DNA from: Escherichia coli
Lineage (GTDB): Bacteria; Pseudomonadota; Gammaproteobacteria; Enterobacterales; Enterobacteriaceae
Length of the DNA: 64,000 nucleotides
Assembly: GCF_051903065.1 (NCBI RefSeq)
Contig: NZ_CP178438.1
Strand: one strand, 5' to 3'
Shown: piece by piece, positions 25,797-33,769 of the stretch
Layout of the letters: every line of letters begins with the position of its first letter
Position numbering within the stretch: position 1 is the stretch's first letter
The notes under the pieces: model-generated
Seen by the model: only the letters and a program-made list of their open reading frames with translations
What the model was told of the DNA's origin: nothing
Databases searched by the model: none
Made by a program: the position numbers and the translations under genes

Positions 25797-27110
25797 TCAA
25801 TCTTTTTTATCGGGATCAGGCTTCTTTTTAGGTAACTTCGGGGGCTTAACTTGCTGATGACTTTGCGTTCGGCGCGTAAGCCAGGGATGGTCAGCTTTAG
25901 GTTTAACATAGTATTTTGAGCGTAAATCAATACGGGCATTATCCACTCGTTCATGGACACTCTTTTCATCATCCGGTGGTATAGGCTCCGGGCCATCAAC
26001 ATACTTTTCCCAGCCCAGCGCTTTCCCGTCATACAGAACGTTAATTTCACCGTCAAAGTTCTCGCATACAGTAACAACCGAATGCCTAAGTCGATATCCC
26101 CGGCCCTCACTGCGTACCTGAAACGCACTGCTTTTGTACTGGAAAGTGAGATTTTTAGACAGAACGCGCTTCGCCTGTAGGCTGAAGATATAACCCAGTT
26201 CCTCTTCAGAATGGTGCACATCAAGATGAGCATTATCAGTAGTACGAGGCGACGTAGCGAACCGGTTGTTATAGGCTTCAATAAAGGTCGGCAACCATGC
26301 ATTTGCTGTTTCAATATCACTGATATTCTGAAGCCGCATTTCTTTGACCAGCCTGTCCTGTAGTGTCTGATTGGCGCGCTCTACCCGCCCTTTTGCCTGC
26401 GGGCTGTTGGCATGGATTGGCTCGATGCCCAGTGTCTTTATCGCACGAGTGAACTGGGTCAGCTCACCTTCCCGCTCTGGGTTATTTACCCTGAATATAC
26501 TGTGTCTATCAGAGTAGAGAGCGAGCGGTACGCCATGATCATTAAGGTAACCCCGGAGGGTTTCCATGTAAGCCCGGGTTGTTTCAGCAGGCACAAAACG
26601 CAACGCCATCAACGCACTGGTGGCATCATCAATGAAAACGATCAGTGTACATCTGGGGCCTCGATTTTCAAACCAGTCATGAGATGAGCCATCAATCTGG
26701 ATCAGTTCACCGTAAGATGGTCGTCGCATGCGGCGTTGATATATACGGGCAATTTTACGACGGCGTTCACGCCATAACCCCTCTTCTATCATCCACTTTC
26801 TGAGAGTTTCAACGGATAAAGATAAACCGTGTATCTCGCGCAATTTTTCGCACGCAAACGTAGGTCCAAAATCAGCGTAACGGCCTTTGAGGAGTGAAAT
26901 TACTGTTGCTCTGAATTCAGTAGAAAAGGAATTATTAGGACGCTTTCCACGTCGGTGGGAAACCAGACCAGAAGGCCCTTCATTTCTATACCGTTGCACC
27001 AGACGTTTAACCTGCCGAATAGAAATGCCAATGCGTGCCGCAGCTTGTTCCTGAATAATCTGAAGTCGGTGGAGTTCCTTATGACTCATCGTAACAGTCT
27101 CTTTGATCAT
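25797..27110 (-). CDS. DDE transposase/integrase with N-terminal HTH and rve (retroviral-integrase-type) core; IS481/ISNCY-like, family not confirmed
   Basis: 437-aa ORF; motifs ...IQIDGSSHDWF..., ...VFIDDATS..., ...HANSPQAKGRVERANQTLQDRL...; element ends not identified. Confidence 0.7.
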   Translation of the reverse strand: MIKETVTMSHKELHRLQIIQEQAAARIGISIRQVKRLVQRYRNEGPSGLVSHRRGKRPNNSFSTEFRATVISLLKGRYADFGPTFACEKLREIHGLSLSVETLRKWMIEEGLWRERRRKIARIYQRRMRRPSYGELIQIDGSSHDWFENRGPRCTLIVFIDDATSALMALRFVPAETTRAYMETLRGYLNDHGVPLALYSDRHSIFRVNNPEREGELTQFTRAIKTLGIEPIHANSPQAKGRVERANQTLQDRLVKEMRLQNISDIETANAWLPTFIEAYNNRFATSPRTTDNAHLDVHHSEEELGYIFSLQAKRVLSKNLTFQYKSSAFQVRSEGRGYRLRHSVVTVCENFDGEINVLYDGKALGWEKYVDGPEPIPPDDEKSVHERVDNARIDLRSKYYVKPKADHPWLTRRTQSHQQVKPPKLPKKKPDPDKKD

Positions 27111-27444
27111 GAAAAATCCCCCAGAGAATTGTCTGGGGACATTTTAGAATGGTTCAAAGGGGACATTACAGCTTGGTGTTAACAATAGCCTGCTTCTCCG
27201 TGCCTTTCGGCACGTAAGAGGCTAACCTACATGTGTCTAGCATGAAATTGGCCTCAGATTAATGTTAAGCGTCTTGCAGGACGCGTAATGTTAACTGGGG
27301 CTTTTCTCTATCTGCCGTTGGTGTCCATGCCCGAGGCAGATAGCCTCAAGCACCCGCAGTCATTCTACTTAACTAAGATTTCCCCGCAAACCGTTTTTGT
27401 CCAGCACAGTAAATATCCAACTAAACCAATGGAGTTCGCTGTAT

Positions 27445-28776: not shown

Positions 28777-29133
28777 TTAAAAAATCAGAACGCCGTGCGG
28801 CCTCAACACCCGAAAGGCTTCTTTAAATCTCTGTCGCGAATCATCACGCCAGGCATCTTTATTCAGCCGTCCATATTTCTTTCCCATCCAGGCGTTATCA
28901 CCAACACTCTCAAGATGCGGAGGGTCTAATACAACCATCGAAAAAGATGCGTCTGCAAATGATAATGCACGAAAATCTGCGATAATGTCAGGGCTGATAA
29001 TCAAGCGTCTCCCATTGCGTAATGTGTATCCTTCTTTTCTGATATCGCTGAATATCGCCCGTTCGTCAGACTTATCGAACCAGAACATGCGGCTGCCACA
29101 GCACATATCAAGAATGGTTGCCGGTGCACTCAC
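28777..29133 (-). CDS. SAM-dependent methyltransferase-like protein, probably truncated (118 aa)
   Basis: Motif I-like LDMCCGSRM and motif IV-like VVLDPPH; ORF too short for a complete DNA methyltransferase. Confidence 0.5.
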   Translation of the reverse strand: MSAPATILDMCCGSRMFWFDKSDERAIFSDIRKEGYTLRNGRRLIISPDIIADFRALSFADASFSMVVLDPPHLESVGDNAWMGKKYGRLNKDAWRDDSRQRFKEAFRVLRPHGVLIF

Positions 29134-29552
29134 TGCGCCACGTCCTGAAAATTACCCTGATAGAAAGCCAGTATGCGCTGCATAACTTCGCTCTTCCGGC
29201 ACTCGCGACAGATTATGTTTAGGCGACTGTCGTAGCGACGTATTTCTCCGTCAGGTGATGACCAGATAAGGTCCGGATCAACCACAGCAGGTTTCTTCAC
29301 CTTTGCCCTCGAGAGTTTTTTGCGGGCGTTTTGCCAGTCCTTACGCGCCTGTTCAGAGGGGAATAACCCGTAGCCGGAGTTGTATACATCGCCACTGGCT
29401 ACCAGCTCTCTGGCAAGAACGCTCATCAGATATCTAGTCGCACCTGTTTTAGCTTCCAGTTGCCGTAACGTCTCACGGCCGCTCTGGCGCACGAGTTCCA
29501 CCACCTGCCATTTAATTTTTTCCCGCTCTTCTTGTGTAAAAACTTTTGCCAC
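29130..29552 (-). CDS. hypothetical protein (140 aa), translationally coupled to downstream methyltransferase-like gene
   Basis: Stop overlaps next start (ATGA at 29130-29133); HTH-like segment TLRQLEAKTGATRYLMSVLARELV. Confidence 0.5.
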   Translation of the reverse strand: MAKVFTQEEREKIKWQVVELVRQSGRETLRQLEAKTGATRYLMSVLARELVASGDVYNSGYGLFPSEQARKDWQNARKKLSRAKVKKPAVVDPDLIWSSPDGEIRRYDSRLNIICRECRKSEVMQRILAFYQGNFQDVAQ

Positions 29553-29592: not shown

Positions 29593-30558
29593 TTATCCTC
29601 TGAAACCAGGCGGAATTTCTGTATCCGGTTCAGAAATATGATTAACACAACGCTGTACAGGTGAACGTCCCAGGCGGATGACCAGTTCGTCCCATTTTTC
29701 GAGGAGCTTTGACGGGCTCATGATGTTTTTTACCCAGAATGGATCTCGCTGAACCCGACCAAACATTTCGCAAATTTGTCTGTGGCTTCTGCCATCCAGC
29801 ATCCGCATTGTGCGCACGTCATTGGCCCAGGCAGTCCAGTTAGGCTCTTTTGGTCGCATGATCTCGCCATCATCACTGGCTGCCTGTTCGTAGAGACCCA
29901 CGATCCGCCCCCAGATCCACTGCGCACACGCCAAATCCTCCCTGCTACCCCACTGGCGTTTTTTCGCACTAAACACAACCGCGTCGGAGTTCCGGGTTAA
30001 AAAATCCTGTTCAGTCGTCTGCGGGTCCGGTTGCGAAGCTTCCGGACGAAAAGTGTTTTTATTCTCTGTAGTAATCTCTGTTGTATTCTCTGTAAGATCA
30101 TCAGGCCATTTTGACCCGATGACATTGGGTCGTTTTGAACCAATGGAGCGTTTCATTTTGACCTCTTCCATCGTGTCATTTTGACCTGATGGAGCGGCGC
30201 ATTTTGAACCGATGGATTCGCTCAATTTGCCACCATCTAAAAGCTCGCTCCCATAGTTGATCGTGTAGAAATTGGTCATATCGCGCTTTGATTTATTGAG
30301 CTTTTCACAACGCAAAAGCCCCAGCGTTTTCAGACTTGCAAACGCGCGCTTTAACGTTGACTCTGACCAGAATGGGAACTGTTCCAGCCATTGTTCCGTT
30401 GTGTTATAAATCCAGCGAACACCATCACATTCCATGCCGGAGTTGGTATCTCTCAACCAGTAGTGCAGTTGTTGCAAAACAATGGCTTCGTTTAAGCCAA
30501 TTTTCATTGCCAGCTGCGTGTTTATAACCAGTGGGCGTTCAGCAAAAAGAAGGCTCAT
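29593..30558 (-). CDS. lambda O-like replication initiation protein
   Basis: ORF 29593-30612 (start probably Met at 30558); C-terminal region ...WANDVRTMRMLDGRSHRQICEMFG... resembles lambda gpO; iterons inside gene. Confidence 0.75.
   Translation of the reverse strand: MSLLFAERPLVINTQLAMKIGLNEAIVLQQLHYWLRDTNSGMECDGVRWIYNTTEQWLEQFPFWSESTLKRAFASLKTLGLLRCEKLNKSKRDMTNFYTINYGSELLDGGKLSESIGSKCAAPSGQNDTMEEVKMKRSIGSKRPNVIGSKWPDDLTENTTEITTENKNTFRPEASQPDPQTTEQDFLTRNSDAVVFSAKKRQWGSREDLACAQWIWGRIVGLYEQAASDDGEIMRPKEPNWTAWANDVRTMRMLDGRSHRQICEMFGRVQRDPFWVKNIMSPSKLLEKWDELVIRLGRSPVQRCVNHISEPDTEIPPGFRG
30105..30240. repeat. iteron array (5-6 copies, ~23-24 bp period) inside O-like gene: candidate replication origin
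   Basis: Repeated CATTTTGACC/CGTTTTGAACC...GATGGA units at ~30107, 30131, 30154, 30177, 30201, 30224; flanked by AT-rich TCTCTGT repeats. Confidence 0.7.
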
Positions 30559-31060
30559 AATTCCATCCAGCTTTTTGTTGGTATTGCTGTCGATACGCAA
30601 GTTTGAAAGCAATTGCTTTTTCTATAAGTTCGTCAGTTTCACGATCCACTACGGCAGGATCAGCAAAAAGCAGTCCGGACTCCACCACATCGCCATATTC
30701 TTTGTTTAACCCGGCGATCATGCACGTGATGCTTTTTCCGTCAGTAATTTCACGATACAACCTGAAATCATTAATCCGGATAGCCTCCATAATTGCAGGC
30801 ACTAGCGCCGTGAACTTTTCACGCTTATCCCTGGTGTCGATAGCCTTCCAGCGTTCAAATATCTTCACTCGATTAACGCCAAGCGCTCGCTGATCAATCG
30901 CGCCACCTTCATATGTGACACGCTGAACATCGATGTTCGGGCGCTCTTTCAAAGCCCAGAATGCTTCAGTGATTAATATCGTCGCCTGCTCCTGTGTCAT
31001 TCCTGGTCGACATATCCAGGCATCCAGAGCCTCACGAGCCTGTTCAGGAGTGATTTTCAT
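30539..31060 (-). CDS. YdaT-like protein (cII-position regulator analog)
   Basis: 173-aa ORF downstream of cro-like dicC; ...DKREKFTALVPAIMEAI... resembles Rac YdaT by memory. Confidence 0.55.
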   Translation of the reverse strand: MKITPEQAREALDAWICRPGMTQEQATILITEAFWALKERPNIDVQRVTYEGGAIDQRALGVNRVKIFERWKAIDTRDKREKFTALVPAIMEAIRINDFRLYREITDGKSITCMIAGLNKEYGDVVESGLLFADPAVVDRETDELIEKAIAFKLAYRQQYQQKAGWNYEPSFC

Positions 31061-31274
31061 TGTTCAACCGCCCCGCCCGCTTCGTCTTACGATATTCATC
31101 ATAAACTTTGGGATCATACTGAAGCTCCCCGCCAGATGCCTCCTGTAGACGCATCGCGCGACCTTCGGGAACTAAATCCCCTTTCCAGCTATAAAGCGAA
31201 GCCAAACGAATACCTGCTGCTTGTGCAAGTTTTGTTTTTGAACCGAAATACAAAAGAGCGTCAGTTTTAAGCAT
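31044..31274 (-). CDS. dicC: Cro-like repressor DicC
   Basis: 76-aa ORF MLKTDALLYFGSKTKLAQAAGIRLASLYSWKG...; divergent from dicA. Confidence 0.85.
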   Translation of the reverse strand: MLKTDALLYFGSKTKLAQAAGIRLASLYSWKGDLVPEGRAMRLQEASGGELQYDPKVYDEYRKTKRAGRLNNENHS

Positions 31275-31357
31275 TTAAAACACCTTTATTGTTAGCCATA
31301 ACTAACAAGATAGATGTTAACAAAAACATAGTCAATACGATTTAGCATTAGCTAACT

Positions 31358-31765
31358 ATGGAAACAAAAAATTTAACTATCGGCGAACGCATCAGGTATC
31401 GTCGGAAAAACCTCAAACACACCCAAAGGTCTCTTGCTAAAGCCCTGAAAATCTCCCATGTGTCTGTATCACAATGGGAACGGGGTGATAGTGAACCTAC
31501 AGGGAAGAACCTTTTTGCCCTCAGCAAAGTATTGCAATGCTCACCAACATGGATTCTATTTGGCGATGAAGACAAGCAACCAACACCACCTGTTGAGAAG
31601 CCAGTTGCCTTATCCCCCAAAGAACTAGAGCTCCTTGAGCTGTTTAATGCACTGCCAGAATCAGAACAGGATACCCAGCTCGCCGAAATGCGAGCTCGAG
31701 TAAAAAACTTCAATAAACTCTTTGAAGAATTACTAAAAGCCCGTCAGCGGACAAATAAAAGATAA
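31358..31765 (+). CDS. dicA: CI-like repressor DicA (HTH_XRE)
   Basis: 135-aa ORF METKNLTIGERIRYRRKNLKHTQRSLAKALKISHVSVSQWERG... Confidence 0.9.
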   Translation: METKNLTIGERIRYRRKNLKHTQRSLAKALKISHVSVSQWERGDSEPTGKNLFALSKVLQCSPTWILFGDEDKQPTPPVEKPVALSPKELELLELFNALPESEQDTQLAEMRARVKNFNKLFEELLKARQRTNKR

Positions 31766-32805: not shown

Positions 32806-32863
32806 TTTCTGGTGACGTTTGGCGGTATCAGTTTTACTCCGTGACTGCTCTGCCGCCCTTTTT
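32806..32863 (+). ncRNA. dicF: DicF small regulatory RNA (ftsZ-targeting)
   Basis: TTTCTGGTGACGTTTGGCGGTATCAGTTTTACTCCGTGACTGCTCTGCCGCCCTTTTT matches remembered DicF with intrinsic terminator; ends approximate. Confidence 0.8.
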
Positions 32864-33071: not shown

Positions 33072-33575
33072 TTATTGATAGTGTTTTATGTTCAGATAAT
33101 GCCCGATGACTTTGTCATGCAGCTCCACCGATTTTGAGAACGACAGCGACTTCCGTCCCAGCCGTGCCAGGTGCTGCCTCAGATTCAGGTTATGCCGCTC
33201 AATTCGCTGCGTATATCGCTTGCTGATTACGTGCAGCTTTCCCTTCAGGCGGGATTCATACAGCGGACAGCCATCCGTCATCCATATCACCACGTCAAAG
33301 GGTGACAGCAGGCTCATAAGACGCCCCAGCGTCGCCATAGTGCGTTCACCGAATACGTGCGCAACAACCGTCTTCCGGAGCCTGTCATACGCGTAAAACA
33401 GCCAGCGCTGGCGCGATTTAGCCCCGACATAGCCCCACTGTTCGTCCATTTCCGCGCAGACGATGACGTCACTGCCCGGCTGTATGCGCGAGGTTACCGA
33501 CTGCGGCCTGAGTTTTTTAAGTGACGTAAAATCGTGTTGAGGCCAACGCCCATAATGCGGGCTGTTGCCCGGCAT
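33072..33575 (-). CDS. insB: IS1 InsB (expressed as InsAB' by frameshift)
   Basis: 167-aa ORF overlapping insA 3' end. Confidence 0.9.
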
Positions 33576-33769
33576 CCAACGCCATTCATGGCCATATCAA
33601 TGATTTTCTGGTGCGTACCGGGTTGAGAAGCGGTGTAAGTGAACTGCAGTTGCCATGTTTTACGGCAGTGAGAGCAGAGATAGCGCTGATGTCCGGCGGT
33701 GCTTTTGCCGTTACGCACCACCCCGTCAGTAGCTGAACAGGAGGGACAGCTGATAGAAACAGAAGCCAC
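33494..33769 (-). CDS. insA: IS1 InsA
   Basis: 91-aa [46 protein letters not shown]... Confidence 0.9.

Follow-up and report, generated by a model that had tools for sequence, protein, structure and literature searches.

A candidate replication origin of a new specificity type inside the O-like initiator gene of a Qin-type lambdoid prophage of Escherichia coli

The gene at positions 29593 to 30558 (minus strand) of the window, that is, of the whole 64,000-nucleotide stretch of E. coli DNA analyzed here, raises the question of whether a decayed prophage may have preserved a complete replication module, with an initiator and the origin on which it would act. The location of the origin inside the initiator gene is a feature of lambdoid phages recognized decades ago. 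In particular, the lambdoid origin is found in the middle of O, where iterons are followed by an AT-rich tract (PMC7466680). Our analysis led us to consider the locus, with a probability of about three in four, as a Qin-type lambdoid replication module, in which the initiator gene carries its cognate origin in the linker-coding part and which is intact, the prophage being defective.

The gene, recognized through its open reading frame, its match to PHROG 391, and its alignment with lambda O, encodes a protein of 321 amino acids from an ATG start; an in-frame TTG is also present upstream, at 30612, and the ATG is the start used by every annotated relative. Upstream, in the same operon, lie a cII-like/YdaT-family gene (30539 to 31060, minus strand) and the cro-like dicC (31044 to 31274, minus strand), with dicA on the opposite strand (31358 to 31765, plus strand). 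This order, dicA/dicC, cII-like gene, O, corresponds to the placement of an initiator gene in a rightward early operon, after cro-like and cII-like genes, as in lambda. A consensus scan located a pR-like promoter (TTGACT-17-TATCTT) upstream of dicC, at 31307 to 31335 on the minus strand, and the putative transcription from it would run through the cII-like gene, O, and the origin. Directly after O lies a DUF977/Ren-like gene (29130 to 29552, minus strand), which in relatives is preceded by a loader gene, and next comes the gene of a SAM methyltransferase.

The region, which lies at the ydf/rsp locus, is a lambdoid prophage of the Qin type and is 100% identical over 24 kb to the complete genome of strain 23CRST027. 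Read through this genome, an IS1 takes the place of the sequence from the 3' end of dicB to the 5' end of int, and the same comparison places an ISNCY fragment and pseudogenes in the Qin-type prophage. Thus, the defect is in the prophage around the module; no defect is visible in the module itself, which looks intact. In 23CRST027, the initiator gene is split by an IS903B, which does not interrupt the gene of the window. A scan of 27 to 34 kb against Rfam returned DicF and sok only, with no match in the origin, and no DnaA box was found between 29400 and 30800 when up to 1 mismatch was allowed.

A reading of the sequence alone (hereafter, the sequence-only reading) had described five to six repeats of 23 to 24 bp in an O-like gene. 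By combining Tandem Repeats Finder, repeat search, autocorrelation, and conservation, we delimited an array of six units at 30099 to 30237 (minus strand), corresponding to nucleotides 322 to 460 of the gene, with five good units and a distal one (30215 to 30237) that is degenerate in the window lineage. The units start, in plus-strand coordinates, at 30099, 30123, 30146, 30169, 30192, and 30215, with a spacing of 24, 23, 23, 23, and 23 bp, and Tandem Repeats Finder reported 3.7 copies with a period of 23 at 30133 to 30216. The periodicity is far above that of shuffled sequences, since the autocorrelation at lag 23 (0.63, versus 0.16 to 0.31 at other lags) was reached by none of 5,000 shuffles, and, when the whole 64 kb is scored in 115-bp windows, the six highest scores all come from the array. 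Similarly, the 15-nucleotide consensus CATCGGKTCAAAATG, searched for with up to 2 mismatches, has four matches in the 64 kb, all of them in the array and on the minus strand. On the gene strand, the iteron core reads GGTCAAAATG. Three iterons are dyad symmetric (CATCrGGTCA-AAA-TGaCCyGATG, with 16 of 23 positions self-complementary), and the remaining ones mainly retain the left half-site.

The repeats had also been read as encoding a recurrent IGSK peptide, and it could be supposed that this peptide is what the linker of the protein needs, the DNA periodicity being a by-product with no role in cis. The region is translated and IGSK does occur three times (SIGSK, SIGSK, and VIGSK), but only in the units that share frame 2: a period of 23 is not divisible by 3, so that all three reading frames occur among the six units (0, 2, 1, 0, 2, and 2). 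Moreover, disorder is predicted for the segment that they encode, and its amino acids vary among homologues in which the DNA cores and the synonymous positions are fixed. In full-length homologues (protein identity, 68 to 94%) obtained from E. coli, E. albertii, Citrobacter, Salmonella, and metagenomes, the cores are found at identical offsets in the gene (327, 350, 373, 396, 419, and 443). When seven diverged genes are compared in pairs, their third codon positions have a mean identity that rises from 0.53 for the N-terminal domain to 0.80 for the spacers, 0.86 for the iteron cores, and 1.00 for the 12-mer segment described below. Since offsets, spacing, and synonymous sites are kept among diverged homologues, the comparison indicates that the repeats are DNA-level elements under selection on the DNA itself and not a peptide repeat; a need for IGSK as the origin of the periodicity appears extremely improbable.

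On the 3' side of the iterons, in the direction of the gene, we identified an AT-rich segment (30040 to 30098, minus strand; about nucleotides 462 to 520 of the gene) as a candidate DNA-unwinding element, on the basis of its composition, its 12-bp repeats, and its duplex stability. The A+T content is 66%, compared to 52% for the window, and three 12-bp repeats, TATTCTCTGTAG, TAATCTCTGTTG, and TATTCTCTGTAA, occupy positions 30060 to 30095. The least stable 40-bp duplex of the gene (30056 to 30095) coincides with them and, in the 64 kb as a whole, ranks among the 2% of lowest stability. The segment that the sequence-only reading had placed 3' of the repeats contains the stability minimum of the gene. 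On the gene strand, it is A rich (26 A versus 13 T), and identity over the 41 bp of the 12-mer segment is 98% in the seven diverged homologues, all 14 of its third codon positions being invariant.

The arrangement of these elements, iterons at nucleotides 322 to 460 of the initiator gene and then an AT-rich tract, is that of the lambda ori, in agreement with what had been proposed for this locus. In lambda, the iterons occupy nucleotides 349 to 433 of the gene, with a spacing of 20, 24, and 23, and are followed by a tract with 74% A+T. [quoted passage not shown] Different from lambda, the core is GGTCAAAATG in 23-bp units instead of ATCCCTCAAAACGAGGGA, and the AT-rich part is made of three 12-mers and is less rich in A+T.

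At the protein level, the AlphaFold2 model comprises two confident domains, one with a winged-helix topology (residues 10 to 108, encoded at 30235 to 30531, minus strand), presumed to bind the iterons, and one helical (residues 180 to 298, encoded at 29665 to 30021, minus strand), homologous to the C-terminal domain of lambda O. The intervening residues, 110 to 177, are modeled as disordered, with a pLDDT below 50. The origin DNA, iterons and AT-rich tract together, encodes residues 108 to 173, and in the model it corresponds to the flexible linker between the two domains of the initiator, as the lambda origin encodes the interdomain linker of lambda O.

The description of the protein as O-like holds for its C-terminal half, the N-terminal domain being of a different family. 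In fact, residues 35 to 339 of the open reading frame taken from the TTG start match positions 11 to 298 (of 298) of PHROG 391, "replication initiation O-like," with an E value of 8.3e-91, and BLASTP aligned residues 147 to 294 with residues 135 to 270 of lambda O (33% identity over 148 amino acids; E value, 1e-25), leaving the N terminus unaligned; tblastn also gave matches in lambda, Stx, and HK phages. Conversely, the N terminus does not match Phage_rep_O (PF04492), which the lambda O control matches at 5.7e-36, and the comparison with hhalign of the profile of window-type N-terminal domains gave a probability of 0.1% with the N terminus of lambda O and of 86% with the HTH_36-type N terminus of SfII O. 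No meaningful Pfam family was retrieved with the whole protein or with either half at permissive thresholds (E values up to 10), the NCBIfam search matched the DnaT tail only, and the sequence search of solved structures matched DnaT tails only, plus a spurious match to YteR. These comparisons indicate that the N-terminal winged-helix domain belongs to a family other than Phage_rep_O and has no Pfam model. A full-library search collected 11,745 cluster representatives, in most of which the N-terminal domain is joined to other C-terminal parts. The RepA_N initiators of Gram-positive plasmids (RepA of pSK41/pTZ2162; PDB 4pta) differ from the window protein in host range and in the C-terminal domain.

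[quoted passage not shown] Both the GGTCAAAATG iterons and the three 12-mers are present in the 47 loci with a window-type N terminus; neither element is found in the 31 loci with the other N-terminal type, which show 15-bp repeats of their own instead. The initiators of SfII and PhiR29_2 combine the same C-terminal family with a different N-terminal domain, and the corresponding part of their genes is occupied by 15-bp GTCAAAATCTGACNC units. The reciprocal combination is represented by the Klebsiella phage ST147-VIM1phi7.2, where the window-type N terminus, iterons, and 12-mers precede a different C-terminal domain, Phg_2220_C, and by the L006 and L011 genes, in which the N-terminal domain, iterons, and 12-mers found in the window are followed by other C-terminal domains. 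It follows from the split of 47 and 31 loci and from the Klebsiella fusion that the iteron type goes with the N-terminal domain, and such a covariation is what would be expected of a cognate initiator-origin pair. The module of the window is a new specificity type of the well-known lambdoid design with the origin in O, carried by a decayed prophage.

The break-points between modules fall just 3' of the 12-mers, both in ST147-VIM1phi7.2 and in the L006 and L011 genes. Together with the 98% identity of the 41-bp segment among genes otherwise 68 to 94% identical, this could suggest that the 12-mer segment serves mainly as a patch of homology promoting the exchange of N-terminal/origin modules with C-terminal/loader modules, rather than unwinding. 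The segment, however, goes together with a single N-terminal/iteron type and is absent from the initiators with the other N-terminal type, even where they share the C-terminal domain, which is the opposite of what a universal linker would show; moreover, it occupies the position of the lambda AT-rich tract and coincides with the stability minimum of the gene. We consider it very unlikely that exchange is its main function, and the two roles are compatible.

On these bases, it is possible to outline how a module made of initiator and cognate origin might operate. The pR-like promoter of dicC, normally shut by DicA, would both produce the initiator and transcribe the origin; the gene order is observed in the window, and the activating role of transcription is a supposition. 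By analogy with lambda O, and in line with the covariation of iterons and N-terminal domain, dimers of the winged-helix domain would bind the six 23-bp iterons, and the adjacent A-rich triplet of 12-mers, again by analogy with lambda O, would melt. Comparative genomics suggests that the C-terminal domain and the IPPGFRG tail might then bring DnaB through a DnaC-type loader, which, with no loader gene in the prophage, would be the host DnaC.

A doubt about this scheme concerns the loader itself. DUF977 begins 40 bp past the stop codon of O, with no loader gene between, and tblastn with lambda-P-type and DnaC-type loaders gave no match in the 64 kb. That no P-like gene follows O had been noted already, and the sequence-only reading had deduced from it that the origin is probably nonfunctional without a helper. 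It could be argued, in fact, that the module needs a phage-encoded loader, that the lineage has lost it, and that the origin is a relic which cannot fire. Several relatives are arranged in a way that would fit this. In the E. albertii locus L014, whose O is 94% identical and is the closest relative outside the window lineage, the gene order is O, DnaC-like, DUF1627, and DUF977; a DnaC-like gene follows O in L012 as well, and L013 has the order O, P (a homologue of lambda P), and DUF977. The decay of the rest of the prophage, with the IS1 deletion from dicB to int, the ISNCY fragment, and the pseudogenes, and the degeneration of the distal iteron also point in this direction.

However, the same loader-less junction, O followed by DUF977, is present in three deposited phage genomes, PhiR42_1, HannyBb, and mEp460_ev081. 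The O gene of the window differs from that of PhiR42_1, whose genome of 48.7 kb includes a full set of lambda-like structural genes, by 1 nucleotide of 966, the origin being identical and the reading frame of the window gene intact; the differences are 18 nucleotides from HannyBb (source, "bird poop") and 33 nucleotides from mEp460_ev081. No loader gene was found in the whole genomes of PhiR42_1, HannyBb, and mEp460, the infectivity of the first two resting on their GenBank records. mEp460 has an initiator homologous at 68%, the same iterons, and, likewise, no loader; it is among the phages for which both the lytic and the lysogenic cycle in E. coli are stated to be confirmed (PMC9836094). Among the 80 viral contigs, about 44 have O directly followed by DUF977, about 33 have the order O, DnaC-like, DUF1627, and DUF977, and 3 have other arrangements, as counted from the table; loader-less homologous modules are also found in SfII and in many complete-looking prophages, and, in L006 to L011, SfII, and mEp460, a loader is absent from O through to Q. 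In addition, the host provides a homologue of the phage loader, since the DnaC-like protein of L014 and L012 (NCBIfam DnaC at 2e-91) is 49% identical to E. coli DnaC.

The occurrence of loader-less modules in PhiR42_1, HannyBb, mEp460_ev081, mEp460, and SfII lends no support to the supposed dependence on a helper, and, judging from these genomes, the replication module probably still works without a phage-encoded helicase loader. We regard it as unlikely that the origin is a relic. Nonetheless, because L014 and about 33 of the 80 related contigs carry a DnaC-like gene after O, a phage loader may be of importance, and a module lacking it, like the present one, could fire less or fail to fire.

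Two other possibilities concerning this junction were discarded. A recent, clean deletion of the loader gene relative to L014 does not fit the alignment, where homology stops exactly at the stop codon of O and resumes in DUF977 at 71% identity; the comparison indicates that the O-DUF977 junction is a mosaic joint relative to L014. DUF977 was also considered as a hidden loader, but in relatives it follows P or DnaC, at the position of lambda ren, and it is absent from the SfII-type modules.

The closest parallels to the module of the window are found in mEp460, in the Shigella phages SfII and SfIV, and in prophages of the e14/CPS-53 type, whose initiators are annotated as "O protein" or "primosomal protein I." They share with the window the C-terminal family, a tail of the IPxGFRG type, the place of the iterons in the gene, and the lack of a P, DnaC, or DnaB gene between O and Q. 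mEp460 resembles the window also in the N-terminal domain and in the iterons; the SfII type, different from the window, has an HTH_36 N-terminal domain and 15-bp iterons. The downstream genes are also different, being PerC and Dam where the window has DUF977.

The last 20 residues of the initiator (residues 302 to 321, encoded at 29596 to 29655, minus strand; ...VNHISEPDTEIPPGFRG) are common to host DnaT, 14 of 20 being identical to the DnaT C terminus of E. coli and Klebsiella. In particular, the terminal IPPGFRG is the C-terminal peptide of host DnaT, and the DnaT signature SEPDxxIPPGFRG, with the K-12 DnaT sequence taken from the genome, is present in the tail. The similarity is confined to this stretch: BLASTP against DnaT aligned only the last 20 residues, and the NCBIfam DnaT equivalog scored 16.2 bits on the tail (cutoff, 201 bits), with no match to the N-terminal and three-helix-bundle single-stranded-DNA-binding domains of DnaT. 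DnaT, moreover, is no origin-binding initiator. Variants of the tail are IPAGFRG (SfII and mEp460), IPEGFRG (homologues from Citrobacter and Salmonella), and VPAGFRS (the Klebsiella phage, whose C-terminal domain is a different one); in loader-less phages, the tail is kept behind three different C-terminal contexts. It is absent from lambda O, which, unlike the window protein, is partnered with P and ends with TDWIYGVDL, and from the P-partnered L013 protein, which ends with DGWEDVL.

The distribution of the tail follows the type of loader. Among 80 viral contigs found with a DnaC-like protein, 79 have an abutting upstream open reading frame, and 78 of these frames encode the tail, ending with IP(P/S)GFRG; 60 of the 78 encode an unrelated 262-amino-acid protein with no Pfam match. 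Conversely, none of the 78 adjacent upstream frames in 80 viral contigs found with P-like proteins (0/78) encodes the tail, the ends being of the TDWIxG(V/L) or PEGWESTL type. An O-like initiator with a DnaC-type loader was described in the Sakai prophages Sp4, Sp10, and Sp12, along with the diversity of loader types among lambdoid prophages (PMC2669165). In prophages of the Sakai type, as in the host dnaT-dnaC pair, the gene of a DnaC-type AAA+ loader comes immediately after a gene whose product ends with IPPGFRG; the L012 and L014 relatives of the window gene show the same pairing, different from the window, which has no loader. The stop codon of dnaT lies 2 nucleotides before dnaC in E. coli K-12, and that of O lies 6 nucleotides before the DnaC-like gene in L014.

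This rule relating tail and loader is the most interesting by-product of our analysis and offers a testable lead on how the initiator or DnaT hands over to DnaB-DnaC. We tentatively propose, at somewhat less than even odds, that the IPxGFRG peptide shared by this initiator, by unrelated phage initiators, and by DnaT could be a docking motif for DnaC-type loaders, contacting DnaC or DnaB-DnaC. The loci sampled for tail and loader are phylogenetically clustered enterobacterial prophages, and part of the association could be due to linkage, if the loader gene and the 3' end of the initiator gene travel as a block. The parallel between O-P and DnaT-DnaC has been drawn earlier at the domain level (PMC5509034), according to a structural study of the restart preprimosome published in 2026, the mode of DnaB-DnaC recruitment is still unknown, and our search of the literature for a described function of the extreme C terminus of DnaT found nothing usable. 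If the peptide is indeed a docking motif, P-less lambdoid phages (Qin type, mEp460, and SfII) would need only one phage protein for firing their origin, DnaC being borrowed from the host, the P-partnered initiators would use TDWIxG(V/L) as an alternative tail, and the element by which DnaT recruits DnaB-DnaC in replication restart would be identified.

An intact origin under repressor control in a prophage that cannot excise could also have consequences for the host, as it could locally over-replicate the chromosome if the control by DicA were lost. The 2.4-kb module is matched, partly or mostly, in 4,610 of 5,426 complete E. coli genomes, so that the N-terminal domain, with no curated model in Pfam, belongs to an initiator family that is very common in this species. 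The intact gene is labeled "hypothetical protein"; the phage records annotate it as "DNA replication protein O."

The C-terminal tail of the initiator follows the type of loader encoded next to it. Among the viral contigs found via loader proteins (L103 to L262), 78 of the 79 initiators adjoining DnaC-like loader genes carry the IPxGFRG tail, whereas none of the 78 initiators adjoining P-like genes does, the C-terminal ends of the latter being TDWIxG(V/L) or PEGWESTL. The tail, which in the window (29596 to 29655, minus strand) is the same as the end of host DnaT, is also retained by loader-less phages. It accounts for the name "Primosomal protein I" that the initiator bears in RAST-annotated phage records, because the tail is DnaT-like. 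In the RefSeq records compared (NZ_CP097721.1 and NZ_AP045789.1), the intact gene (29593 to 30558) is a "hypothetical protein," and the copy split by IS903B in a 100%-identical strain is labeled a "phage replication protein O" pseudogene.

Between the initiator gene and the Ren-like DUF977 gene, otherwise near-identical modules vary in a DnaC-like plus DUF1627 gene pair, which is present in the related loci L014 (5973 to 7926) and L012 and in about 33 of the related viral contigs L020 to L099. This is a clean presence/absence polymorphism at a single mosaic joint. In two contigs of the L020 to L099 set (L030 and L031), a 229-aa ORF located about 370 nt past the O stop replaces DUF977 or the DnaC-like gene.

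At the other end of the initiator protein, no Pfam model covers the N-terminal winged-helix domain (30235 to 30531, minus strand), through which, chiefly, the initiator matches 11,745 representatives of 50%-identity clusters. The N termini of Staphylococcus phage "DnaD domain" proteins are 46% identical to it (tblastn), and its top predicted fold match is 4pta, a RepA_N-type plasmid initiator.

Within the candidate origin, a GATC (Dam) site at 30096 to 30099 (gene strand, GATGATCTTACAGAG) lies where the last iteron meets the first 12-mer, and it is kept in all homologues examined. The site may have a role, for example in control by SeqA or methylation of the kind seen at the origins of Stx phages.

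The window prophage cannot excise, and its origin, if active, would fire in situ. An IS1 element (33072 to 33769 and flanks) occupies the place held in fuller Qin prophages by the dicB 3' end, the exonuclease, the excisionase, and the integrase 5' end. The DicF small RNA lies at 32807 to 32858 on the plus strand (Rfam RF00039, 76.7 bits). A sok-type antitoxin RNA (27184 to 27355, minus strand; Rfam RF01794, 104 bits) is adjoined by an ISNCY-family transposase ORF (25797 to 27110).
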